DNA of 63,995 bases, filler included, from Basidiobolus ranarum (lineage: Eukaryota): NCBI GenBank assembly GCA_040143965.1. It is 3 parts of 3 records of this genome, joined end to end, with 100 filler letters (N's around TTAATTAATTAA, not from the genome) between each part and the next. Parts side by side here need not be neighbours in the genome. Positions count along the whole stretch, not along the records: positions 23,536 to 46,945 come from JASJQH010007042.1; 2 more parts are not named here. The stretch is one strand, 5' to 3'. Below are positions 17,932-47,045 of the stretch, in pieces; the stretch's first letter is position 1, and every line of letters begins with the position of its first letter. The translations under genes and the position numbers were made by a program. Under the pieces are notes generated by a model. The model searched no databases. It saw nothing but the letters and a program-made list of their open reading frames with translations, and had not been told where the DNA came from.

Positions 17932-20900
17932 ATGTTTTCTGAAGATACCGATTCCCTTTTCGATGTTTTCTCTGCGCCTACCACTACAGAGATTTCCACC
18001 GATTTGACCAATCTTTCCACCAAAAAGAGAAAGACAGAAGAGGCTGTTCCTGACGACGTGTCCAAAGAAGTCAATGAAGTAAAGAGCGTATCCAACGACT
18101 CCCAAGAGCCCACCAGAAAGATAAAACGTGCTTTATCACCCAAAGCACTTGTTGCTGACGAGTTTTCTCAAGATTTATCTCGTGAAGTTCAAGCAGTTGG
18201 AAAGGAAGTTCAAGAAGATTATGGAGAAACTCTAGTACTTTCTCACCAAGTATGTAACACCCTTTATTAACCTTCCATATCTCTCTTCATACTGAACGTG
18301 ATTCTCTATTTTTCAGGTTCGTCACCAAGTTGCCATTCCACCTACTTATGAATATATTCCTTTATCGCAACACGTGTCTCCTCAACCACCTGCTAGAACC
18401 TATCCATTCAAGCTAGATCCTTTCCAGCTCTTAGCTACTCATTGTATTGAGCGTTCAGAGTCAGTTCTTGTCAGTGCTCACACTAGTGCTGGTAAGACCG
18501 TGGTAGCTGAGTATGCTATTGCACAAAGTTTAAGAGAGAAACAACGAGTTATCTACACTAGTCCTATCAAAGCACTTAGTAATCAGAAGTATCGTGAACT
18601 TCTTCAAGAGTTCGGAGATGTAGGATTGATGACTGGTGATGTTACTATCAATCCTAGTGCCTCTTGTTTAGTCATGACCACGGAAATTTTAAGATCTATG
18701 TTATATCGTGGTTCAGAAGTCATGAGAGAAGTTGCTTGGGTAATCTTCGATGAAGTACATTATATGAGAGATAAAGCTCGTGGTGTGGTTTGGGAAGAAA
18801 CAATCATTATGCTTCCTCATAAAGTCCACTATGTCTTTTTGTCAGCTACCATTCCCAACGCTATGGAGTTCGCTGAATGGATCTGTAAGATTCATGAACA
18901 AGTAAGTCAACGAATTCGTGAGTTTTCCAATTTCTTCATCTACCCATTACTTACATGTGTTACTTGTTTAGCCGTGCCATATTGTGTACACCGATTTCCG
19001 TCCCACACCCCTACAACATTATCTCTTCCCATCTGGTAGCGAGGGAATTCATTTGGTTGTCGATGAGAAAAGTGTTTTCCGTGAGGAGAACTTCCAGAAG
19101 GCTATTGGGGCTCTAGGAGATTCTGCTCCCGAAGAGCCTGGAGGCAGCGGAAAAGGCTCCAAGAAGAAGAGTAGAAAACCAACCACTAAAGGTAAACTAA
19201 TGATCTTCTCACCTTAATCACAAGACTCCTACTAAAGTATTCTTTCTCAGGTCCATCGGATATCTACAAGATCGTTAAGATGATCATGACCAAGAATTAT
19301 CATCCAGTGATTGTGTTTAGTTTTAGTAAGAGAGAGTGCGAATCTCTAGCGCTTCAGATGAGTAAACTCGACTTCAATGACGAATCGGAAAATGAGATGG
19401 TGGCCACCGTCTTCACCAATGCCATCAACGGCTTATCCGACGATGACAAACAACTTCCCCAGATTGAGCACCTTTTGCCTTTGTTACGTCGTGGTATCGG
19501 AATACATCATTCCGGATTACTTCCCATCTTAAAGGAAGTTATTGAAATCCTCTTCCAAGAGGGTTTACTCAAAGTGCTATTTGCCACGGAAACATTCTCT
19601 ATCGGTCTTAACATGCCTGCTAAAACGGTCGTGTTTACCAATGTGAGAAAGTTCGATGGTAAGGATTTCCGTTGGGTGTCCTCGGGTGAATATATTCAGA
19701 TGTCTGGTCGTGCGGGTAGACGTGGTCTGGATGATCGTGGTATTGTTATCATGATGGTGGATGAAAAGATGGAGCCAGCAGTGGCCAAGAATATGGTCAA
19801 AGGAGAGGCTGATGCCTTGAACTCAGCTTTCCATCTCACTTACAATATGATTCTCAATCTGATGCGTGTAGACGGAATGAGTCCTGAATTCATGTTGGAC
19901 CAATGTTTCTTCCAGTTCCAGAACAACGCCAATGTGCCCAAACTCGAGGCGGAACTTCAAGTGGTCGAGGAGGAGCGTAGATCCATTGTTGTTGAGAATG
20001 AAAAATTGGTGGAACAATACTTCAACTTGAAGCAAGAAATTGAACGTTACACCGGAGACAAATTCGACATCATGAATCATCCAACTTACTCGCTTCCATT
20101 CATTCAACCTGGTCGTGTGGTAAGAGTGGTTCATAATGGGGATGACTTCGGATGGGGTTGTGTTGTTAGTTATCAGAAGAGATCTTCCTCCAACAAAGGT
20201 CCTAACAAGGATGTTAACGATGCTGACGATGTGGATGCCGCCTCCAAATACATTGTTGATGTACTCCTCTGTTGTGCAGCTGGAACCACCGTCGCTAAAG
20301 GACCAGATGGTTTAGTGGCCGGTGTTCAGCCATGCAAAGAGAATGAAAAGGGAGAGATGGTGGTCGTTCCTGTGTTGCTTAACACTTTGAGAGGAATGAG
20401 CCACGTCCGACTTTTCCTTCCTAAAGATATTCGACCCCTCGAACCCAGAAACACAGTGCAGAAATCTATCAACGAAGTTAAAAAGAGATTCCCAGATGGA
20501 TTGCCTCTCCTTGATCCAGTCGATAACCTCGGTATCAAAGATGAGAGCTTCAAGAAACTCATCAAGAAGATTGATGTATTGCAAGCTCGTCTGGATGATA
20601 GTCCCATCAAATCTGACCCACAACTTCCTCAACTTTACGAAGAATACGCCAAGAAAATGAAGCTTGCGTTACAAGCAAAAGAACTCAAGAAACAAATTCA
20701 AACCGCTCACTCGATCATGCAACTGGACGAACTTAGATGCCGTAAACGTGTCCTTAGAAGATTGGGCTACACCAATCAAGCAGACGTTATTGAAGTCAAG
20801 GGCAGAGTCGCCTGTGAGATCAGTACTGGTGATGAGTTGCTGTTAACTGAGATGATCTTCAATGGTGTCTTCAATGACCTTACAGTGGAACAAAGTGTTG

Positions 20901-21310
20901 CCTTGCTCAGTTGTTTCGTATTCCAAGAAAAGAGTGAACAAGCACCAAAGCTTGGAGAAGAGCTTGCTGGTCCCCTTCGTATGATGCAAGAAGCAGCCAG
21001 AAGAATCGCCAAGGTTTCCCAAGAATCGAAATTGAATGTTAACGAAGAGGAGTATGTTGAGAGTTTCCGATCGGAACACATGGATGTGGTTCACGCTTGG
21101 TGTAATGGTGCGAAATTCTCACAAATCATCAAGATGACGGATACATTCGAAGGTTCCTTGATTCGTGGATTCCGAAGACTGGAAGAATTACTACGACAAA
21201 TGTGTGCAGCAGCCAAATCCATTGGTAATACTGAATTGGAGAATAAATTCGCCGATGGTATTAACAAGATTAAACGTGATATCGTTTTTGCCGCCTCACT
21301 TTATTTGTAA
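17932..21310 (+). CDS. MTR4: Mtr4/Dob1 Ski2-like DEVH-box RNA helicase (TRAMP/exosome cofactor)
   Basis: [47 protein letters not shown], arch/KOW insertion and C-terminal [12 protein letters not shown]. Introns 18250-18316, 18902-18971 and 19192-19250. Confidence 0.96.
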
Positions 21311-21865
21311 ATATATATACGTTTGGTTCCCTATCTTTCCCCACCCCTTCCCTTCATCAAGGATTCTGCTAGCTGTATCTGCTAGCTGTATGCTTCCTCT
21401 TTTATTATCAATAAACTCTTATAATTGATAGAATTGCACTAATTTCTTGATTACATTGATCCATTTCTCTCATGTTTGTCCTCGGAGGTAGTGTCACTAA
21501 ATCTTGAATTTCAGCACTTGTATTAATATGGATGCCCCAAAATGGGAATTCTCATATAGATCTGTCAGATATAGTTACCAATGTTTAGAGCATGCTATGA
21601 CATTGTGTTCCACGAATCTATCAATTTTACTCCGAGCAGGTGTCACTAATAAACAGCATTATATATCTCTTGAATATCTGAATTTCTACCCTAATCTCAT
21701 TGAAAAATAGATGATGAAACTCTTTTAATGGTGGCTCAAGATGGCTATCTAAATCACCTGGCAACTTTGATGTTAATGTGGGCTGAGCTAAGTATTTTCA
21801 TAGCACGCTTTGTTCAGAATCATGCTTGTATAGACAGAGGGCATCTTGAATTTCTTCCAAATCTT

Positions 21866-22037
21866 GGAAAGCCATCATTAAGGAGAATAGACCAATTGCT
21901 TCAGTTAAAGCGAATCCTAAAATTGTATAACTGAATAATTGAGCTTTAAGAGAAGGGTTTCTTGAAGTTAAGTTAATTAAAGCTGCGAATACTAAACCTA
22001 CTCCTACTCCTACTCCTGCTAATCCTATAGTTGCTAA
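21866..22037 (-). pseudogene. atp9: NUMT: internal fragment of mitochondrial atp9 (ATP synthase subunit c)
   Basis: Reads [57 protein letters not shown], with RNP loop and catalytic Glu. Codon usage is mitochondrial-like (TTA, GGA, GTA). The N-terminal and C-terminal residues of subunit c and any targeting peptide are missing. Confidence 0.88.
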
Positions 22038-23102
22038 GAGTATAATTAAGCCAACTATTATGTCTAAGTACTGAAATGTCACAACATCCAGCTTGTCAAT
22101 AAATGATATACAACCATCTGAAGAGAACTTTGAAAAGAAATAGTGAATGGTTTATTTGAATATCTGTGAAAGTAGCTGTAGGAAAAATATGCAAGACTTT
22201 CCAACTTGTCTCTTGGTTATTTCCATAAATAATTCTATGCATCCTGAACATATGTACAGTTTTGAACTACATATTATTTGTCCAAGTAGTATTAACTACT
22301 GTTGATGTGATGAGCTAAGTCAACAGGTATTGAAGAATAGAAGTGATAAGTATAAAAGAGATAGAAAGCTCAACATTGCAATTTAACTATTTGTCAGTAT
22401 ATCTGAATCTTGATTTTGTTTTAAATCCAGGAGTTAGGCATGCGGCAGAGATTAATTTGAATGTTGCAAGTGATTTCCTTAGATAGTATTATCTCTGAGC
22501 TGGTTAAAAATGACTTCCCTAACAAACTGGTGGTCAATGTCAATATATATATATTTTGGTGTGAAATCTACAATATCTACTATCCTGAACAATAATTATG
22601 GGTGCATTCTGCAAATTCTCAAGCTACTAGACTGTTTTGTTCACCACATTACCACCCTGGCTGTGTAACTAGATACCATCAAGCACTTCAAATACTGATG
22701 ATTTCATATTGAGTGAAGTGAGGTATCCTTTTGTCTTCTGATATCGTAAATGTGAATAATGAATGCTTACATGTTTGAACGCTCTAACTGTAGTATAATC
22801 AAGCTAACTAACAGGTTACATGTCTTTAGTAAGCCTCTATCACTTTCGCAATATCCCACTTCATTACTAAATACCTCGTAAAAATCTTTTGAGAGGATAA
22901 ATCCTTCAATGAAGTAGTCTACTTGCCTACATAACCAGCGGAACATAATAATAAAATGAGAAGGCTAAGCTGAGGATTCAACCTTTTCAGTATATAACTG
23001 TGAAGTCTTAACATAAGGCTACATTATTTACCGAGTACAGAATAAACTTTTATTATTCGATTTAGGAAACAATAAACTGTACTGCTCGATATTTTCATCA
23101 AT

Positions 23103-23435
23103 TTAATCGTATTGACCGCCATAACGAGAACGAGAATGACTTTATTGACCATTTCTGCGGGAGATTCCTCTTTCGTATTCATTGTCATACTCATCCTGGT
23201 CATACTGGCGGCCATAGCGGGAGCGAGACCAGTTTTGTTGACCATTTCTACGAGAGACACCGCGCTCATATTCGTTATCGTACTCGTCCTGCTCGTATTG
23301 ACGACCATAACGAGAGCGAGGATAGTTCTGTTGACCATTTCTGCGAGAGACACCGCGCTCGTATTCGTTATCATACTCATCTTGATCATATTGACGGCCA
23401 TAGCGAGAGCGAGGATAGTTCTGTTGACCATTTCT
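23103..23435. repeat. 93-bp tandem repeat, about 3.5 visible copies, running into the assembly gap
   Basis: Anchor TTGACCATTTCT recurs at about 23145, 23238, 23331 and 23424. Confidence 0.95.
23142..23435 (-). CDS. 3' end of a tandem-repeat protein (31-aa unit RNGQQNYPRSRYGRQYDQDEYDNEYERGVSR); 5' end is in the gap
   Basis: 93-bp period. In the frame AGA AAT GGT CAA CAG AAC TAT CCT CGC.., most differences between copies are synonymous or conservative third-position changes (CGC/CGT, GGC/GGT, TAT/TAC, CAA/CAG, GAT/GAC), which marks this as the coding frame. TAA at 23144-23142. This frame is absent from the ORF track. Confidence 0.8.
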   Translation of the reverse strand, partial: RNGQQNYPRSRYGRQYDQDEYDNEYERGVSRRNGQQNYPRSRYGRQYEQDEYDNEYERGVSRRNGQQNWSRSRYGRQYDQDEYDNEYERGISRRNGQ

Positions 23436-23535
23436 NNNNNNNNNNNNNNNNNNNNNNNNNNNNNNNNNNNNNNNNNNNNTTAATTAATTAANNNNNNNNN
23501 NNNNNNNNNNNNNNNNNNNNNNNNNNNNNNNNNNN
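23436..23535. other. Assembly gap: 100-nt placeholder with artificial six-frame stop spacer TTAATTAATTAA (23480-23491)
   Basis: N-run, TTAATTAATTAA, N-run; identical to the construct at 46946-47045. Confidence 0.97.
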
Positions 23536-24561
23536 TCACCAAAGATCATCAAGCCAAAGAACCGGGAATGCTTCAATGTACAAGGGAACAAGGTTGAACC
23601 ACTGATTATTCGAGGCCTAGTTGGAGAGCGTATTCAGCTTCATTTGCATAATGGGCTACCCAAGCAACTCGTTCCTGAACCATTTGCTGTCCCCGTTCCG
23701 GTAGATAGTACCAATCGAACTGTATCCAATAGAGTATCGATACATGCTCCGCTCATACAGCATGATGTCAGGTATGATGATGGCTCCAATGTCGGTTTTA
23801 ACGAAGATTCCACCGTCGGAGTAGGAGATACGAGAATTTATAATTGGTATGCAGACCAACATTTAGGAGCTCTTCCACTACAAGATCATGCCGATATTCG
23901 CAATCATAAGCATCATGGGTTAGTTGGAGCTTTGGTAATCTTGGGTTCTCATGAAGTTCCTGAGACATGGGTTGGTCCTGCCTCTAATGTTTACTACCGT
24001 ACCAATGTTTACAATCGCCCTTCAAAGCGTGGACGATTGCTCTATCAAGATAAAGTAATGATATTACAATCCGGCCTACGTTTGTTTGAAAACAATACTA
24101 TTGATGCACCTATTCCCTATGCAACCGGCTTCCAATTTCAAATTTTGGCCAACGCTACTACTCCTGTTCCAGGTGAAGTGGGCGTTGCTTTGCAGGATGC
24201 AGGACTTAAAGCTATGAACTATCGAAACCAACCTGCTTCTGCTCCAAACTGGTTGAAAAACAACAACCCTTCGACACAAATATTTGATGCCATTGCAAGC
24301 ACTCGACAGGTCCTATATGTTGTTAGTGGTTTAGATAAACCAAGACCACAATCATTCCATCTCCATGGCCATGCATGGATTGATCAGCTCAAGGCACCAC
24401 AACATGGCGTCTCTTCTGTCAATAATGCCATCGGTGTTGGTGCAAGTATAACGAATGAGTTTACAGCCAGCAATAGCACTGGAGATTGGGCCTACAGAGC
24501 CGGGTGGCTAAATGCAGAGTACCTGACCGAAAATTGGGGTATTTTCCGTGTGCATAAATAA
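23536..24561 (+). CDS. C-terminal part of a large MnxG-like multicopper oxidase (bacterial type); 5' end is in the gap
   Basis: Frame is open from the gap edge: ..KVEPLIIRGLVGERIQLHLHN..VSNRVSIHAPLIQHDVRYDDGSNVGFNEDSTV..YNWYAD..DHADIRNHKHHGLVGALVI..QDAGLKAMNYR..PSTQIFDA..RPQSFHLHGHAW..GDWAYRAG..NWGIFRVHK. This follows the motif order I recall for the last two cupredoxin domains of Bacillus MnxG-like proteins. No introns in 1 kb. Confidence 0.8.
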   Translation, partial: SPKIIKPKNRECFNVQGNKVEPLIIRGLVGERIQLHLHNGLPKQLVPEPFAVPVPVDSTNRTVSNRVSIHAPLIQHDVRYDDGSNVGFNEDSTVGVGDTRIYNWYADQHLGALPLQDHADIRNHKHHGLVGALVILGSHEVPETWVGPASNVYYRTNVYNRPSKRGRLLYQDKVMILQSGLRLFENNTIDAPIPYATGFQFQILANATTPVPGEVGVALQDAGLKAMNYRNQPASAPNWLKNNNPSTQIFDAIASTRQVLYVVSGLDKPRPQSFHLHGHAWIDQLKAPQHGVSSVNNAIGVGASITNEFTASNSTGDWAYRAGWLNAEYLTENWGIFRVHK

Positions 24562-25136
24562 TATGTTGTTTTGATTTCAAATTGGAGAATATGCAATTTT
24601 GTAATAAACGGGGATAATAGACCTTCTCTGTATCATATATGCCACGCGCTAGTTCATTTTGATGATATTTCATACTCTACAATGATTGTCAACTGCCAAG
24701 GATCATTTTCACTCAATAATGTAACAAATAACTTTGTCGATGAAATACTAATAATTGTTGACATGCTTTATAGCACTTTGTTTGATCTGTATATATAAAT
24801 GCGCTCTGAATACATGCACTCGATGTCTCTATAGAGCAGCTGCGCATGTAATCAAACAATACCCTTGCCAATTGTTCTTTTCGGATAGCTATGCAATGGC
24901 GATCTATGTGAACACTGATTGGCAGAACCCATTGTACCTACTGATCGAATGTGGCTTTTTCTACTTGGTTACTAGTTAATTTGCTTGAATCATTTAGGCT
25001 GATTCGAGATTCAATTTTAAGGAATATTAGTGATGATTCATTATTGAACTGATATTTGGAAATAGTGTACGCCCCGAAACCTTACCTTAGAGCTTATTTC
25101 GTGTTTTCTTTGTTCCGAACTTTCAAAGACAACATC

Positions 25137-27533
25137 ATGAACACAAGGTAGTATGTAAACCACTGTAGTTTTCTTGATAAACATTAAACTCTTCACCCAT
25201 GCTTTTTACCCGCTGACACATAAATGCCACTTTTCTAAGACCACTCACATTTATCCTTTTTTCCCAAATATATACTTTCAACGCTAGTGAACGTGAAAGA
25301 TAAACGTCATTTTAAATCTTGTAGTGATACCGATACCAGGTCATTTTGGAGACGTTCTTTAAAGAAAATGTCTGAAAAGTAGGTTTTTTATGGCCCGATC
25401 ACTTTTTTGTATAGAAGTGATGAACGAAAGTTTTCAGTATTTTCAATGATGAAAAGAGTGCCGACTTAAATAAACTAATGTTTTAAACTTGAAGGACCCC
25501 AGATCAAAACGGCCTTAATGTATTTGGAGCACAGTACTCTCACGGAACCGTCATCGCTGGTTCAGATTTGTCGTAAGTCTGCTTTATAATGTCCTTTAAT
25601 ATGATCCCTTTCCGCGAAAGCTATCCTTAATTTAAGCAAAATGAACTTAAATATCTCATTCATCTTTACTTTGGTAGAAATTCGTATCGTTCAGGAGGCA
25701 ATTCACAACGCACTAATAGATATTCCGGTCGAATCAGTCCCACTGATTTTATTGACAACATCAACCAGGATTGGGATTCAGATGTAAATGGCGAGGTGCA
25801 CTCAAGCAAAGATAGTTTGCAAGTTCCTTTCTTTAATGTTCAAAATCTGGCAGATTCAGATTGTGACATTGAGGGAGACCTTTCAGCACAGTTAACCAGA
25901 AGTCGAACTCCTCCTCCAAGTAACTATAATTTGATAAACATCCAGATATACTTGAAACGTTGCTGAAACTTGAACTTTAACTTTTTTAGAAACGTCTTGT
26001 ACAAATGTGGATTTATCAAGTTCAATGGCCAAGCCTGTATTAAAATCTAAGATGTCTGATTCGCAACTATCGAAGTACAATCGTTTGAAGAAACTACTTC
26101 AAGCCTCTAGTGTAGATTTAGGTAAGTTTAAGGTAATATCGAATCTTCAATGCAGTTGAGATCCTGATAAAAATTACTTGCTTCTTTCTTATATATCAGC
26201 TAAACTACAAGAGCTTTGTTGGAATGGTATTCCAGAGGACCTTAGACCAACAGCCTGGCAACTGATGCTCGTAGGCGCATATTATATTTATTAGCCCAGT
26301 AAATCCATTTTACTTATGATGTCAATGTTAAGGGGTATTTACCGTGTAATGCCGAACGCCGTGCTCAAACATTAGCAAGGAAGCGCAAAGAGTACGAAGA
26401 TGCTGTTGCTCAAACTTTCAGTCGTGGTGAAGCTGGCTTAGATGAAGAGATGTGGCATCAGGTAAGTCTATTTCTTTTTTACTTCATCAAGGAGCCGTAT
26501 AATAAACTCATTGAAATAGATTACAATCGATGTGCCTAGGACCAATTCAGAAGTTGCCTTATACCGCCACCCGGTAACACAAGAAGTAAGTCTTGATAGA
26601 AATGTTGATTGTGTTTGTTCATTTTCCTTAGTACCTTCACATTAGTGTCTTAAACGAATCTTATACTGCTGGGCCGTTCAACATCCAGCCAGTGGCTATG
26701 TCCAAGGTATCAACGATTTGGTGACACCCTTCTTTCAAGTGTTTTTAACTGCCTACACAGGTAATAGCATACTCTGATATAACTTCGATACGGCATATAT
26801 AAATACTTATGTTTATATAGATGAAGATCCCGAAAACTTTAATATCAGTACTCTTTCAAAGGAAACACTATCCACGCTAGAAGCTGATACTTTCTGGTGT
26901 TTGACTAAACTACTAGACGGTATTCAGGTTAGTTGACAGATAACCTGCAGCAATATATATATGTGTGTCTTACCCGTTAAATAGGATAACTACACTTTCG
27001 CTCAACCTGGCATACAGCGCCAAATCTTCAAGCTTCGAGAATTTATAGAACGAGTTGATGGTGAATTTTCAACTATGAATGGCTTGTTATTTAACTTTAT
27101 AATAATTTATTTACAACCTCGTAGCTCCGCTAGCTGCTCACCTCGCTGCCGAAGGAGTGGAATATATTCAGTTCACCTTTCGTTGGATGAATTGCTTACT
27201 TTTGCGCGAAATCCCAATGAAAGCGACAATTCGCATGTGGGATACTTATTTGGTATGTCTCTTCAAGATTTAGTAAAACTTTAGTATCAAGGCTGATTTT
27301 GAAATTAGGCCGAAGGAGAAACGGGATTTTCGGATTTTCATCTTTATATGTGCGCCGCCTTCCTTGTATACTGGTCAGAACATTTAAAGAAGTTGGAATT
27401 TCAAGATATTATCATGTTTCTTCAGTCACTCCCTACTCAGAACTGGACAGATCAAGAGATTGAGATGTTACTGTCACAAGCTTACATATGGAAAACACTA
27501 TTCCATAACGCACCGAATCATTTCGGACACTAA
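25137..27533 (+). CDS. GYP1: Rab GTPase-activating protein Gyp1/TBC1D22, multi-exon
   Basis: Spliced start ATG 25137: MNTS|DTDTRSFWRRSLKK..NVFGAQY, resembling the TBC1D22 FWKR..YGAQH N-terminus. TBC domain WNGIPEDLRPTAWQLML|GYLP, ITIDVPRT (IxxDxxR), SGYVQGINDL (YxQ), EADTFWCLTKLLDGIQ|DNYTFAQPG, FRWMNCLLLRE and RMWDTY. About 11 short introns. Confidence 0.93.
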
Positions 27534-28112: not shown

Positions 28113-28820
28113 TTACAAATCTTCATCTTCTTCAGGAAGAGGTTGGTTAGCAGCAGCCTCGAGCTCTCTGTTGTATTCGGCCATGAGAGCGGGGTCAACT
28201 GAGACTTCAGGAGGAGCCAAAGCTGGGGAAGCAACGAACTCGAGGTTAGGGTTACCAACCAACTTACGAGCCAACCAGAGGAAAGGCTTCTCGAAGTTGT
28301 AGTTGGACTTGGCGGAGATATCGTAGTATTGAAGGTTCTTCTTACGATGGAAAGTGATGGTCTTAGCCTTGACCTTTCTTTCTTTGATATCGACCTTGTT
28401 ACCGCAAAGAACAATAGGAATGTTCTCGCAGACACGGACTAAATCACGATGCCAGTTAGGAACGTTCTTGTAGGTAATACGGGAAGTGACATCGAACATG
28501 ATGATGGCACATTGTCCTTGGATGTAGTAACCATCACGAAGACCACCGAACTTCTCTTGACCAGCGGTATCCCAGGTGTTGAAGCAAATGGCACCAAAGT
28601 TAGTGTGGAAAGTCAAAGGATGGACTTCGACACCAAGAGTAGCGACGTACTTCTTTTCGAATTCACCAGTCAAATGGCGCTTGACGAAGGTAGTCTTACC
28701 GGTACCACCATCACCAACTGTGTAGAAATATTATTAGTCATCTAATATGAAAAACAATAACTGCATGTAAAACATTCGCTTACCAAGAACAAGTTTGAAA
28801 GTAGGAACTTCAGCGGCCAT
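28113..28820 (-). CDS. GSP1: Ran GTPase
   Basis: [66 protein letters not shown] and acidic tail PEEDEDL; intron 28783-28718. Confidence 0.98.
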
Positions 28821-29892: not shown

Positions 29893-32800
29893 TTAAATTA
29901 AAATAGAACCATCAGAATCTTCTACATCCTCATCTTCCATTTCATCCTCTATAGCTTCTAAATTCAGGTATTGTTCAGCGGTATCTTCTTCTATATCACT
30001 ATTGGATATTTGTGAATTAGATAGCTTTCTGTTATCTGGAACACCATCTATCCGTATATGCTTATTGGTTTCTTCTTCATCATCGCCTTCTGTCTCTGTG
30101 GCATTTTTGGTGTGAGTTGGAGGTATTTTGCGTTTTCTTCTAGCTTTTGCACTTTTTAGGAGAGAATGTGAGCGTGATCCAGATCCTTCAGACTCTTCAT
30201 CTTGAATATCTTCTTGCGGAATTTGCGAAGATACTTCTTCACCAGTAATGCTACGATGCTTAAGATTACCTAACCAAAAGGCACCTAAGCAGTGATTATG
30301 TTCCAAGAGGGCCTTAACTCTGAATAGTAGAGTCTCCAATGCTTTACGCATTAATGGTACGTTGGCCGTGAGTACCAAATCTTTGATTACCTTGGAGTGA
30401 GAGCATACATTTTGCAATATACGAGTAGCGTTCTGAATTTTCTTAAAAATGGATAAGATTTCGTTTCGATATGTACGAAAGTTGACATCCAAACATGGCA
30501 TGATTTTCTTTAGGAATAACTCTATGAAAACTCGACCATTTTTAAGAACAACTGTCAGTAAAGGTCGTTTTTCGCAATTCTTGGCAAATCCGACTAAGTT
30601 TTGCCAACTGATCACAATTTTAGATATGTGGAGTATCAGAGAATCACGCTCATCTAGTCGATCTTGGAATTGACCAACTACATTGATCAATTCATTGTTG
30701 ACTGTCTTGAAGAACGTCAAAAACGTATCACGAGTGAGGAGCGGGTGATCCTCTAATAGATCAGCATCACCAGAAAACAGTCCTGGAAGAATTACCGATG
30801 AATATTCCTCTATGGTGTTTAAAGAGTTCCCTGAGTGAATGATACGTTGTCGCAACAAATAAGCAAGATCATCACTCTGTGGTTGATTGCGGTAAGTTTG
30901 AAAGTTTTGAACTTTGCTTAAGAGATGATAGAAATACCTTGATAGAGAGAATATCATTCCACTGGTAGCTAAGGAGTTTCTCGGAGAATTTTCCAACTTC
31001 AGGAGAAAGCAGTTGCGCTTGTGGAGCTAGTTCCATAATCTTTACTAGTAGCTTGTGCAGTAAAATGGATAAACTCGCTGTCTGAAAGAGCTCAGAGAAT
31101 TTGTAAATATATTCAAAGGCTTCTTGTACTAATTCTTGTATCTGGTGTGTAGGGGATTCTGTCGAAAGTTTAATCCTAGAGGCCAAGCTATTCAATGTTT
31201 TCTAACAAAAGAGAATGAATATAGATCAGTATGAGGACAGGATTCACACAAACAATCATGATCAAGAATAAGTTACACACAGATAAAATCTGTTCGTTAT
31301 CTGGGCTTTGAATATCTGCCCAAGAGAAGATTATAATCAAGACATTCAGTGTCGTTTCAACACATTCAATCTCAATTCGCTAATAACAGAGTCGTTCATT
31401 TAATAAGTCAGTATTGGTGAGGGATTGAGTGTGGTAATTGTACCTCTGAGGACATGTCAACATCAGCTCCCTATGTCAAACATGTAAGTTATGATAATAT
31501 ATATAACCAACTCCTTACTGGAACAGCTATTACGTACCAAAACTTGGATCTCTTGAGCAGCATTTTCTAGATGTTTGCAAAGATATGGTAGTATTTCGTT
31601 GACCTGTCCATAAAATCAAAGTAAGTATTTGCTGCCAACGAGAGGAAGTGAAAGTTCTACCTCGGACATAACTTCCTGGGGTCCTTTACGTGCCAATATC
31701 TGAAAGCGAGACTTTTGTTCAGCGTCCTTCTTCTTTGGTCTTCCGAATGTAGTAGTGGCTATTTGGCCCAACTTAAATGCGAGCTTCTCTTTCAAATCTT
31801 TTAAAAGAAAACGCAAATCGGAGTACTATTCCCAAAAATGATGATCAATGAAAGGACGATGAATCGGAGGTTTGGTTATAACTTACACTTAAAGCAAACC
31901 TATCTTGATTCAAAATAGATTTATCGGTGGTGTCTTTAACCAGTTGCTCGCACCGAAGCAATTTGAATACGTTCATCTGTCAGATATGAGGATTCGTAAA
32001 CCAGATTAATGTGTGATGTTAACAAGGAGATGTACCTCTAGTTCTCTGAAATAAGCACGAGTGCCAGTACCACTAGCGGAACTTTGAACCTTCGGATTTG
32101 CGGAATCCTCGTCTTTGTCGGAACCTGCTTTTTCAGAATTCCTTTTTCTTGGTGTCTAAGAGTAAATTGGATGTTAATACAGAGGAAGAGCGAGGATAGA
32201 GAGTAGAGCATAGTACTTGAATTGTAATCTCCTTGTTTTGTGTAGAGCGATTTATACTATTTCCTTCCTGTGTTTCAGCAAAGTCAAGTAGAAGAAGCGA
32301 TGGTGATAATTTAGGAGAATGCGACAGGATGCTCTCCAATTCACGCTCCAAGTTTTCAATGTGGCTAAGGCGAGAAAGACATTTTCCTAGAAATGATATG
32401 GGAGTTTTAAAAAGTTGCTACTAAAGAAATCAATGTGTAAGATATACCTAGCATCTCTTCATCTTTTTGATCACTAAATGCATTCAGAAGCTCGCGAAAC
32501 CTTTGAAAAGCAACTTTAGCGAGAAATACCAACGATATATCGATGATATGCTTACCAGTTGATCGCGTAGAAAAGGGTGGAGTATGTAATGGTCTTTAGG
32601 CTCTCAGTATGATCGGACATAGCATGCTGTATAAGATGATGTCAGATATCAAGTATGTAGTCTCATAGCGGGATTAAATAGAAAAACCTCAAATTTCGCC
32701 TGAGAATACATAGCAATTCCACACCCCAAAAGAGCATCAATATCATCTAAAGATCCACTATTTAAGGCCTTGGTGCAGTTTTGCATTAGCCTGAATAGAG

Positions 32801-35637
32801 AACACATATATCGTAGATGATTTTGCGGACTAGCTCCATTGCAAAGTCCCATATTGGAGGCATTGTCTTCATCATTATAATATGCTCCACTTAACATTGG
32901 ATATATCTTAAGCGTGACTGCAGAATTCTAATTGAAGGTAAAAGGTTAGCCAGGTTGAAGAGATCTCAGAGCGGTATCTTGAATATTACCTCTCCATCAA
33001 TATCCATCCAGATTTCCGTTGGTAACAAGTTGAGAAATTTATTGCCTTCCAAACTGTATATCTCAGATTTCTCACACAGAAAGACCTCAGCGAAATTACA
33101 AGCAATATTCTCATTGATCCAATATGCTAAACGCTGATCTAGGAATTCAGATTCTACGATGGCTGATAACTCGTCGTACGCCAACGCAAGGCAGCTCTAG
33201 CATGGAGATCAATAAACACATCACCAACAAGGAAGAAGTAAATTGAGACTAACCGAAGATTTTTTGCAAGATTCCATAGTCATTTCGATCACAGATATTG
33301 CCTGACGAAGCTGCGGATTTTTTAGAGATTGAGAGATATGATCCTCTCCGTCTACATGATGTCCTACAGGTCAATAATCAAGGCTTTGAGATTAAGCGAA
33401 ACTAAAATATAAACCTGCACGACTACTTCCAGCTCCTAAGGCTACAGTATCTTTTGAGCCGATCTTCTTAACGATGGCTAAAGCGCCTACAACACCCATT
33501 TGGCGGTATTTCTCGACTGAACTGGACAGTTGTTTTCTGATAACAATGTTCAGATCATTTAAAATCCCGTCATCTCCTTTTTTCTGTCCCTAATTTGATC
33601 ATGAAAGGGTGTTAGGTTTTCACGTGAAGGTGCATGATTAACTTCAAGTTACCTCAGAGGCTAATGCACTGAAGATGTCGAATAATACTCTGATCTGGGT
33701 TATGGATAGGTTGTCAAGGTAGTCGAGAATTCCTTTGATGAATATAGAAAATGGAACAGCTTCTTTGGCGCTCGCAGTGACAATATTCAGTAAACAGTCT
33801 AGTGCCGTATCAATCTCCCAAGAAGCTCCACTTCCAATATGAGTGACTAACGAGCCAATAACCTCCTGTCGATAGTATGAATCAAACATTCGGAAGCATG
33901 ATTCGTAGATGATACTAGCAGCTCGACCAAGAATCATGTTGTTCTGACAGGCGCGTAGTAACGCTTCTGCAAGTGAGAGTAGGGAGCCAAAGTATTCTCG
34001 CAAAGCTTCATTATGATTGGTAATGGTCTCCTCAAGAAGAGCGAGAGAAAAAATACCGGAAGATATCTTCTTGCGAAATATATTTTCTGCCTTTTTCTTG
34101 ATGTTTTTCAATGAGTGCATGATAATTAATATGATGAAGTCGATAAGCTGGTAATCTTGATCATCTCCAATCTCGCTAATAACTTTGAGCCAAACGTCAC
34201 GAAGCATCTTGTTGAATTGAAGACCAGATCTTAAAGATTCTAATTATGAAGCGTTACAAATTTGAAGAGGAGAGGAGGTAAATCGCTAAATATTACCTAA
34301 AATCAAAGTTTCAGGCATCTTCCTGACTTTTTGAGTGGACCGTGTGCTTGTACTCTGTGAAAACAATCTATCATCCCGTAGGCGATAAATGGATTTCAGG
34401 TCTAGTTTGGATCTTATGCGACCAATAACCTACACAGAATGGTTAGAATCTGTAGATGGGAGGCGCTAGTCGTCTCTAAACCTACGTATTGGGCGTTATC
34501 CACGTCTACAGATTGTAACAAGAATTTGATCATAATCGGTAGATCGTCTAAGTCAGCAGATTCGAGGCGATTGATTATGGGCTCCCGTATATTGTCCTGA
34601 AGGTAGGCGGTTTGAGTAAGCAGCGTAGTTCAGGCTTGTAGACTAAATGACTTACCAGTAGATCTTTTTGCAGATTCAAGTTGGACAAAGCATCGAGGAT
34701 CGGAGCCATGAGATCAGCATTCTCCTCCATCAAAGTTTGCAACTCAACCACAACCACCTTTCATCAATTCACGTTAACAGCGCTTCGGTATGTTAGATGA
34801 AGCTTAACGAACCTTATGCTCGGAGTCATTCACTATTTCGGGGAGATTGACGATGAGTTCTCTTTGTATTTCGATGGGCGTAATTGATATTATCTAGATT
34901 TGCTCAATGTTCTCAATCAATAAATGAAGAGTCAGAATTGGATAGAACTCAAAGAGTAGTACCTCCATCATCTTTGCGGTCAATCGTTCAGGTTCAACTA
35001 TGTGATCTAGCCATCTTAATTGATGTAAAATCGATTTTGGAAAGCTTTCCAGCTCACTTTAAAAACTCTTAATTGAAATTTTGTTTAGCAGAGTTCAATT
35101 ATTGTTTACGTACGTGTCGTCTCCGGCAGAAATAAAATGCGTCAATTTTTCTAACAATAAGTCTAGTAAATCCGGTTGTATCGAGTCTATACTAAGCAGA
35201 ATTCGAACCAAGCTATCTGTGGTATAGGTTCCTTTAACTGAACCTGCAATCGAAACTGACTGTAAACAAAGCTTGAGCAGATTCAAATCGTCAACAAATG
35301 TTTCAAATTGTTGGATGAAATCCTCAACCACAGTATTTTTTGCATTTGCTTTGAGGAGCTCAAGTTGTATATTTCGACGAAATATCGATTGTTCGACAGC
35401 TTATGGTTGTTGAAGAGATATCAAGCCAAGTAAGTAAATTTTTGGAGCTGAATAGAAGCAATTCATTTAACAGACAGTACCTAATGTAAAAGCATCTTCG
35501 GCTATTCTTAGTCCCGCCTTCTCTATTATACGTTCAAAGAAAGATTTGGGATCTACAAGAGTGAAGACGAGCTGAATATTTGTAAAAGGTTCAAGATTCA
35601 GGTAGGTTTATTATTTACCCTCTTCTGAAGTCAACAT
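29893..35637 (-). CDS. FANCD2: Fanconi anaemia group D2 protein, intron-rich
   Basis: Exons read DSLVRILLSIDSIQP, ILHQLRWLD, QRELIVNLPEIVNDSEH, APILDALSNL, DDLPIMIKFLL, QEVIGSLVTHIGSG, FIKGILDYLDNL, DLNIVIRKQLSS, GSLDDIDALLGC and LQNVCSHSKVIKD..VPLMRKALETLLFRVK..AFWLGNLKHRSITGEEVSSQ, colinear with animal FANCD2. Start codon (35637) and some exon borders are approximate. Confidence 0.93.
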
Positions 35638-46945: not shown

Positions 46946-47045
46946 NNNNNNNNNNNNNNNNNNNNNNNNNNNNNNNNNNNNNNNNNNNNTTAATTAATTA
47001 ANNNNNNNNNNNNNNNNNNNNNNNNNNNNNNNNNNNNNNNNNNNN
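46946..47045. other. Assembly gap: 100-nt placeholder with TTAATTAATTAA spacer
   Basis: Same artificial construct as 23436-23535. Confidence 0.97.

Follow-up and report, generated by a model that had tools for sequence, protein, structure and literature searches.

The question raised by this locus is how a gene for a bacterial type of oxidase came to reside in a fungal chromosome, and what its product may do there. The window, that is, the whole stretch of 63,995 nucleotides analyzed here, is derived from Basidiobolus ranarum (GCA_040143965.1). Its middle contig (JASJQH010007042.1) opens with the 3' end of a gene that a sequence-only reading had assigned to the MnxG-type multicopper oxidases (MCOs) and had put forward as a candidate for horizontal gene transfer (HGT). 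Among bacterial manganese oxidases, MnxG of the Bacillus type has been studied best. Our analysis indicated, with high confidence, that the fragment is the C-terminal third (domains 5-6) of a paralogue of the Bacillus MnxG family resident in a fungal nuclear genome. An old bacterial origin shared with chytrids was strongly favored, and the reading as a whole, in which the function is what we infer, appeared probable.

The window is composed of three contigs joined by two identical artificial linkers, one listed in Table 1 and the other at 46946-47045, so that linkage inferred across either join is unsafe. The oxidase frame opens where the middle contig begins, directly behind the first linker. 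The gene was therefore cut at its 5' end by the assembly, and the join removes about 3 kb of it. Translation of the frame gave 340 residues with zero internal stops or frameshifts. Every motif of the series that had been listed from the sequence (EPLIIRG, SNRVSIH, DV..DG, VG.N.D.T, ADIRNHKHHG, NYRN, FHLHGHAW, GDWAYRAG and WGIFRV) was present in this translation, and the HCH box of laccases and Fet3 was, as also stated there, absent from the 340 residues. A tblastn search with B. ranarum K7432_009757 (1341 aa) returned a single ungapped high-scoring segment pair (HSP) covering residues 1001-1341 at 84% identity. Thus, the fragment, whose 340 codons correspond to residues 1002-1341 of K7432_009757, makes up the final quarter to third of a protein of ~1340 residues and is intron-free over this kilobase, in agreement with the sequence-only reading. 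No further pieces of the oxidase gene were detected anywhere in the window by tblastn with four full-length relatives. The fragment is an assembly-truncated orthologue of Basidiobolus proteins already deposited as 'hypothetical protein/cupredoxin', and not a new gene. A hexamer downstream of the stop codon (Table 1) is a possible poly(A) signal, although in so AT-rich a region it is weak evidence.

To identify the family of the fragment, we compared it with protein and structure databases. In a homologue search among longer proteins, the best match was a B. ranarum protein (E 8e-217). Seven of the 20 matches were from Basidiobolus, and the remaining 13 were bacterial or unnamed proteins with 26-37% identity. 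The B. ranarum matches were K7432_009757 and its contig neighbor K7432_009758 (625 aa, 85%); a single B. meristosporus contig encoded two further matches (73% and 72%). Residues 19-340 of the fragment aligned with residues 877-1205 of PDB 9bxa_A, the MnxG of Bacillus sp. PL-12 (E 1.4e-45), and residues 71-1341 of the full-length K7432_009757 (P0002) aligned with 9bxa_A 3-1205 (E 6.6e-195). Bacillus MnxG, like the fungal orthologue, is collinear over the whole length, has the same motif order and carries HCH in domain 2 only. An AlphaFold2 (AF2) model of the fragment had a predicted local distance difference test score (pLDDT) of 72 and a predicted template modeling score (pTM) of 0.78. Foldseek placed 9bxa_A first for this model (query-normalized template modeling score, TMq, 0.72; E 4e-21; ~25% identity), whereas the other listed structural matches, which were two- and three-domain laccases and other MCOs, had TMq values of 0.43-0.52. 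These results support the assignment to a bacterial MnxG-type oxidase. Look-alikes in the ESM Atlas, all of them bacterial clusters, gave no further information.

The family is clear because of the PDB and homologue searches; Pfam and NCBIfam alone remained below threshold. On the fragment, PF07732 scored 19.9 against a gathering score of 21 and PF07731 scored 15.3 against 20.4. The NCBIfam model NF041487 (copper_ox_MnxG), an equivalog of the Pseudomonas type, scored the fragment at 18.2 bits and P0002 at 215 bits, with a cut-off of 3100. The Pseudomonas-type MnxG/MofA proteins described by NF041487 are large multi-cupredoxin oxidases linked to manganese oxidation; they are distant homologues and formed the outgroup of our trees. 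The Bacillus and Pseudomonas enzymes (BaMnxG and PpMnxG) are themselves reported to be ~25% identical (10.1101/2022.11.10.515945). We also considered a laccase or Fet3 identity. These three-domain MCOs have the cupredoxin fold and HxH-type motifs in common with the fragment. This identity was ruled out by the missing HCH box, the Pfam scores below gathering and the structural scores (TMq 0.46-0.52 vs 0.72), and no laccase appeared in any sequence search result.

We further examined the putative copper sites. In full-length relatives, domain 2 contains HVFHLHGH and HCHLYVHF..GMW (around residues 384-449), and domain 3 contains the two complete HxH motifs, HVHLVKFD and FFHDHLF. The corresponding type-1 (T1) and trinuclear-cluster ligand positions, whose assignment to copper sites is predicted from MCO motifs, were invariant in 19 full-length sequences, five of them from Basidiobolus. 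The histidine mutated in the 9bxa H340A entry aligned with a histidine in P0002. The HCH box is absent from the fragment because the HCH/T1 site lies in domain 2, upstream of the contig break. The protein may be built of three fused two-domain units with a single T1/trinuclear center at the interface of domains 2 and 3, comparable to the trimers of two-domain laccases. The missing HCH box is thus the normal state of domains 5-6 and not the sign of a modified copper site. A Cys ligand was found in these domains in 0 of 27 displayed alignment rows.

In the fragment, the core of domain 5 includes SIH (H69) and NHKHHG (H123/H125/H126, nt 23902-23919), and the core of domain 6 contains QSFHLHGH (nt 24349-24372) with neither Cys nor an HCH box. 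H123 was conserved in all bacterial or metagenomic (101/101) and chytrid (6/6) rows and in 6/7 Basidiobolus rows, and H276 in 98/99 bacterial or metagenomic rows. The substitution of Gln for His three residues before HLHGH, from which a possibly modified copper site had been suggested, is real (Q271, nt 24349-24351; Bacillus MnxG has HTFHLHGH). However, this position varies across the fungal clade, being Q, L or V in Basidiobolus and I in chytrids, and none of the displayed members has a Cys ligand in these domains; His occupied it in 7/12 displayed bacterial rows. H274 was present in 6/6 Basidiobolus and 4/5 chytrid rows, compared with 4/99 bacterial or metagenomic rows. The fungal clade therefore has an extra His two residues ahead of the invariant one (HxHGH), which, as the alignment reads, is a derived feature common to this clade. 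All family-invariant residues of domains 5-6 were kept in the fragment. Three chytrid proteins (P0169, P0170 and P0172) had an insertion just before the EDQGQK motif of domain 6; it was ~100 residues long in the two Rhizophlyctis proteins, shorter in that of Borealophlyctis and absent from Basidiobolus and bacteria.

To understand the distribution of the family, species-representative genomes were searched. At least 599 bacterial loci were confirmed, and the best 80 were examined further; these came from gut and soil Clostridia, Actinomycetota, Roseomonas/Belnapia, Allosphingosinicella, Archangium and Oculatella. In a 50%-identity library, 468 representatives were found at E≤1e-3. A search with the full-length orthologue yielded 1538 proteins at E≤1e-20, and the best 120 comprised six Basidiobolus proteins, six chytrid proteins and others that were bacterial or unnamed. 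After the six Basidiobolus proteins, the next matches were those of Borealophlyctis nickersoniae, Rhizophlyctis rosea (two), Powellomyces hirtus and Spizellomyces punctatus (SPPG_09220), with 925-1028 bits; Fimicolochytrium jonesii scored lower (795), and the best bacterial protein scored 916. The chytrid homologues were 36-44% identical to the full-length orthologue. The nearest bacterial proteins among the best 120 of 1538 were 36-41% identical over ~95% of the length, and no fungi beyond Basidiobolus and these chytrids were found among the same 120. Several of the top-matching proteins are encoded on contigs of 0.46-1.47 Mb. The chytrids with homologues belong to Rhizophlyctidales and Spizellomycetales, in another phylum than Basidiobolus. 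Their proteins fall in the same clade as those of Basidiobolus, carry the same HxHGH and are annotated just as hypothetical proteins or copper oxidases. The family was also widespread in gut Clostridia, including Lachnospiraceae, Oscillospiraceae, Peptostreptococcaceae and one strain of Clostridium perfringens (loci L004-L072). These bacteria are mostly anaerobic, although the oxidase is putatively O2-dependent.

Trees were constructed to trace the origin of the fungal genes. A longest open reading frame (ORF) of at least 1100 aa was required of the loci; 69 of the 80 satisfied this, and the other 11, which were shorter or truncated, were left out. Alignments were made with MAFFT FFT-NS-2 for the larger set and L-INS-i for a set of 43 rows, which was chosen by hand to stand for each clade of the 120-row tree. 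In the 120-row FastTree phylogeny, the fungal sequences formed a clade of exactly 13 rows, and none of the bacterial rows among the 107 non-fungal rows fell within it. The IQ-TREE analysis (LG+C20+F+G4; 43 rows x 1162 columns) was rooted on the Pseudomonas-type relatives, and supports are given as UFBoot/SH-aLRT. The window fragment grouped with K7432_009757 (100/99) within Basidiobolus (100/100). Basidiobolus and the chytrids (themselves 100/100) formed one group (100/99), which was joined in turn by the metagenomic protein P0024 (100/99), a mixed bacterial clade (100/99) and Actinomycetota (100/100). Within the chytrids, Spizellomycetales were well supported and Rhizophlyctidales weakly so (69/22). 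The Bacillota, including the Paenibacillus-type relatives, lay apart, and the Bacillus/Paenibacillus-type subclade within this branch was far from the fungal clade. When the 27 bacterial rows were forced together, their monophyly was rejected (delta lnL 140, approximately unbiased (AU) test p-AU 3e-10; LG+F+G4, fast searches).

The bacterial sister oxidases came from Actinomycetota, Cyanobacteriota, Alphaproteobacteria, Myxococcota and Bacteroidota (for example Oculatella, Belnapia, Allosphingosinicella and Geodermatophilus), and their function is uncharacterized. They share the six-domain layout of the fungal proteins; their domain-6 motif is H-S-F-T-x-H-G-H, in contrast to the fungal x-S-[FLI]-H-x-H-G-H, and their GC content at third codon positions (GC3) is high. 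In P0024, a signal peptide and a Cys-rich N-terminal region are combined with Ser/Thr/Pro-rich linkers, and the hydrophobic tail at its C terminus resembles a GPI or membrane anchor. These features suggest that it comes from a eukaryote not yet sampled, in which the enzyme would be anchored to the cell surface.

Since the fungal clade is nested inside the bacterial MnxG diversity, the origin is bacterial but old. Both groups of Basidiobolus paralogues contain B. ranarum and B. meristosporus sequences, and the duplication therefore predates the split of these species. The oxidase gene has since gained the composition of its host, been duplicated and been passed vertically within Basidiobolus. 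The HGT proposed earlier thus stood in its bacterial source and not as a new or lineage-specific event, because there are six chytrid relatives in the same well-supported clade. The best matches outside the genus lie in a eukaryotic clade, yet that clade is embedded in bacteria.

A recent transfer to Basidiobolus alone, from a bacterium sharing its gut habitat, was considered as another source. Bacterial-like genes are reported to make up 2-5% of those in Basidiobolus (PMC7466969), the gut Clostridia described above include many carriers of the family, and the oxidase stretch of 1 kb has no intron. However, an uninterrupted ORF of 676 codons at 19280-21310 (+) on the first contig shows that a kilobase stretch without an intron is not unusual in this genome. 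The sisters of the Basidiobolus proteins are chytrid proteins, and of the Bacillus-type groups in the tree the Bacillota clade is the most distant. In addition, the nearest bacterial proteins are only 36-41% identical, the composition and codon use of the oxidase are host-like, and the paralogues are older than the species split. We therefore regard a recent transfer as very unlikely.

It is harder to decide how often the gene was captured. Three histories fit the data alike: one capture near the fungal base followed by many losses, one capture followed by fungus-to-fungus transfer, and two captures. The second and third of these, the last as separate acquisitions by Basidiobolus and by the ancestor of Spizellomycetales and Rhizophlyctidales from one unsampled bacterial lineage, would account for the patchy distribution in two distant fungal groups with no other fungus among the best 120 of 1538 matches. 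The stems of the two groups were long (0.41 and 0.47) above a short shared stem (0.21), which also favors such histories. Basidiobolus and these chytrids are dwellers of soil or dung. On the other hand, both groups share HxHGH and have lost the preceding His that 7/12 displayed bacterial rows keep, and their clade is unbroken by any bacterial row among the 107 non-fungal rows of the larger tree. These features do not separate the variants, the shared HxHGH change is compatible with all three histories, and a double capture or transfer overlaps with the favored explanation. We consider it rather unlikely, though a good deal less so than a recent transfer.

We next asked whether the oxidase resides in the fungal genome. 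No N was present from 23536 to 46945, and the oxidase fragment, GYP1, Ran and FANCD2 therefore lie on one contig (Table 1). The two GYP1 exons lie in different frames, match RabGAP-TBC and had yeast Gyp1p (1fkm/2g77) as their best PDB matches (E 4e-16 and 2e-13), so that the link to an intron-split GYP1 on the same contig was confirmed. The small GTPase is presumably Ran, which we take to be a eukaryote-only gene. The best match of a FANCD2 exon was B. meristosporus K493DRAFT_356944 (73%), whose contig measures 83466 bp. A contig of 83466 bp also carries both oxidase genes of B. meristosporus, and from these equal sizes the linkage of MCO and FANCD2 appears to be kept in that species. Since both FANCD2 and the oxidase are 73% identical to their B. 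meristosporus counterparts, the two genes have diverged to the same extent. The GC content of the fragment was 0.443 and its GC3 0.353, both inside the ranges of the neighboring genes. Its relative synonymous codon usage (RSCU) correlated with that of the neighbors at r 0.58, compared with 0.37-0.56 among the neighbors themselves.

Table 1. Features of the window around the oxidase fragment, with positions counted along the whole window
Feature	Position	Strand	Basis
Artificial contig join, 44 N + TTAATTAATTAA + 44 N	23436..23535		read directly, located by script
MnxG-family six-domain multicopper oxidase, 3' gene end	23539..24561	+	340 codons + TAA
Cupredoxin domain 5 core (Cu-oxidase_3-like)	23695..23946	+	Pfam PF07732, residues 53-136, E 8e-4
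Cupredoxin domain 6 core (Cu-oxidase_2-like)	24229..24378	+	Pfam PF07731, residues 231-280, E 0.017
AATAAA hexamer, possible poly(A) signal	24603..24608	+	read directly, 42 nt past stop codon
GYP1-type RabGAP gene, two confirmed exons (26646-26777, 27106-27273)	26646..27273	+	Pfam RabGAP-TBC, E 3e-8, 8e-9
Small GTPase exon, presumably Ran type	28113..28730	-	Pfam Ras, E 8e-45
FANCD2 gene, several exons	29893..34243	-	Pfam FancD2, E 4e-54

These observations bear on a bacterial contaminant or a chimeric contig, which could be suspected because the frame lies at the very end of a contig beside an assembly break and because the family is mostly bacterial. Contamination is unlikely given the contiguity with GYP1, Ran and FANCD2, the neighbor-like composition and the apparent linkage in B. 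meristosporus. Two other Basidiobolus assemblies contain orthologues with 72-85% identity, in one case apparently linked to FANCD2 (contigs of equal size), and the nearest bacterial identity is below 42%. The GC3 of 0.35 also differs from the 0.55-0.96 of four relatives from the clades nearest to the fungi (L001, L003, L031 and L050), although three Bacillota relatives span 0.14-0.49. The earlier argument against simple contamination was thus borne out, and we judge a contaminant or chimera to be extremely improbable.

On the contigs carrying the relatives, K7432_009757 and K7432_009758, which starts mid-domain, sit together on one contig of 11.3 kb, and both B. meristosporus copies likewise share a contig. 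Tandem duplicates of the oxidase gene may have broken the assembly just upstream of the fragment.

To evaluate the function, we searched for the partners of MnxG. In Bacillus, MnxG is described as capped by an MnxE3F3 ring, with Mn(II) oxidized along a tunnel and ending as MnO2 (PMC13689576). A jackhmmer search seeded with Paenibacillus MnxE/F was run on six-frame ORFs of at least 50 aa from the 80 loci and the window. In the Paenibacillus locus L079, two small ORFs upstream of the oxidase matched MnxE and MnxF of 9bxa (9bxa_B and 9bxa_E). Genes for mnxE/F adjoined the oxidase gene in 4/80 loci, all of the Bacillus/Paenibacillus-type subclade, and MnxE/F were found neither in the window nor in the examined loci outside that subclade. 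As the bacterial branch behind the fungal genes seems to be without MnxE/F, the fungal enzymes probably act alone. The fungal proteins also appear, from our reading of their N termini, to carry a eukaryote-style signal or anchor.

A working scheme can be proposed from these features. The complete protein of ~1340 residues, bearing a signal peptide, would be secreted or bound to the surface. A metal substrate, most likely Mn(II), would donate electrons one at a time to the type-1 copper of domain 2 (HxxHxH ... HCHxxxH....M). From there they would move to a trinuclear copper cluster to which domain 2 and both HxH motifs of domain 3 contribute, and this cluster would reduce O2 to water. Domains 5-6, which lack a type-1 site, would close the six-domain ring. 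They would retain remnants of the inter-domain His clusters, with H69, H123, H125 and H126 toward domain 4 and H274, H276 and H278 toward domain 1, and these remnants may bind an extra metal or line a channel for substrate or product. Unlike Bacillus Mnx, the fungal enzyme would probably function without the MnxE/MnxF cap subunits.

Mn(II) as the substrate remained a tentative proposal, to which we give clearly less than an even chance. Multicopper oxidases switch substrate readily. The main alternative is another metal or a phenolic substrate: the gene and its origin would be the same, and the enzyme would act on phenolics or melanin precursors, Fe(II) or Cu(I), or the copy would be a decaying paralogue. 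The low identity to the sole characterized enzyme and the absence of MnxE/F are consistent with another substrate, as is the fact that most of the bacterial family is uncharacterized and bears 'manganese oxidase' names assigned automatically; the end-to-end homology with MnxG speaks for Mn(II). Decay is suggested by the short tandem model in B. ranarum, against which stand the preserved family-invariant residues of domains 5-6 and the 340 codons free of stops and frameshifts. Together, another substrate or decay came close to an even chance in our estimate.

Several points weigh against the reading of the locus as an old, bacterially derived MnxG-type oxidase with a function in manganese oxidation. 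The window holds just the last 340 residues of this copy, both Pfam matches of the fragment alone fall under their gathering scores, and the cut-off of the Pseudomonas-type model NF041487 is far from reached. Truncated tandem copies may exist, since the 625-aa K7432_009758 adjoins the full-length B. ranarum gene. The synteny of MCO and FANCD2 is drawn from equal contig sizes and not from coordinates. The AU test used LG+F+G4 and fast searches in place of a mixture model and is weaker than intended, two transfers from one unsampled bacterial lineage would also give fungal monophyly, and P0024 is taken as eukaryotic on features of its sequence alone. To our knowledge, the only characterized member is the Bacillus enzyme, which is ~25-35% identical and needs MnxE/F, absent here.

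Other features were observed on the first contig. The translation of the ORF at 19280-21310 resembles a Ski2/Mtr4-type RNA helicase in its C-terminal part. On the same contig as this nuclear-type helicase gene, an ORF for ATP synthase subunit c was found at 21798-22082 (-) (Pfam ATP-synt_C, E 1.4e-10); it may represent a nuclear copy of atp9 or an insert of mitochondrial DNA. At the end of the contig, a 93-bp tandem repeat in 3.5 copies (23106-23435) runs into the gap. Its minus strand encodes a hydrophilic unit of 31 residues (RNGQQNYPRSRYGRQYDQDEYDNEYERGVSR) three times, followed by a partial fourth unit ended by a stop. This arrangement resembles the 3' end of a gene whose product would be rich in repeats and in Arg, Gly, Gln, Tyr and acidic residues.

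No description of a eukaryotic or fungal MnxG-type oxidase was found among the papers listed for MnxG with fungi, chytrids or Zoopagomycota and for multicopper oxidases of Basidiobolus and Spizellomyces. The words copper, cupredoxin, manganese and MnxG do not occur in the main text of Tabima et al. 2020, in that of Ciach et al. 2024 or in that of the Basidiobolus genomes preprint of 2025, although supplementary tables may already list the B. meristosporus genes. For B. meristosporus CBS 931.73, Tabima et al. report 806 HGT candidates, with host-like codon usage and a median intron count of zero. A survey of bacterial manganese oxidases covered bacterial genomes only. The point most worth following is an undescribed fungal clade of the MnxG type without MnxE/F. 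In its fullest form, with at least one unsampled eukaryote included, with stand-alone secreted Mn(II) oxidases and with a single capture deep in fungal history, this proposal is unlikely, and we offer it as a speculation.

For annotation, the finding means that a family deposited as 'hypothetical protein/cupredoxin' can now be named. If the proposal were true, early-diverging fungi would have a bacterial style of manganese-oxide biomineralization, distinct from the laccase and peroxidase routes of Dikarya. If Mn(II) is oxidized without MnxE/F, the fungal protein would offer a simpler system in which to follow MnO2 formation by this enzyme, and early-diverging fungi of soil and gut would have an unrecognized role in manganese cycling.

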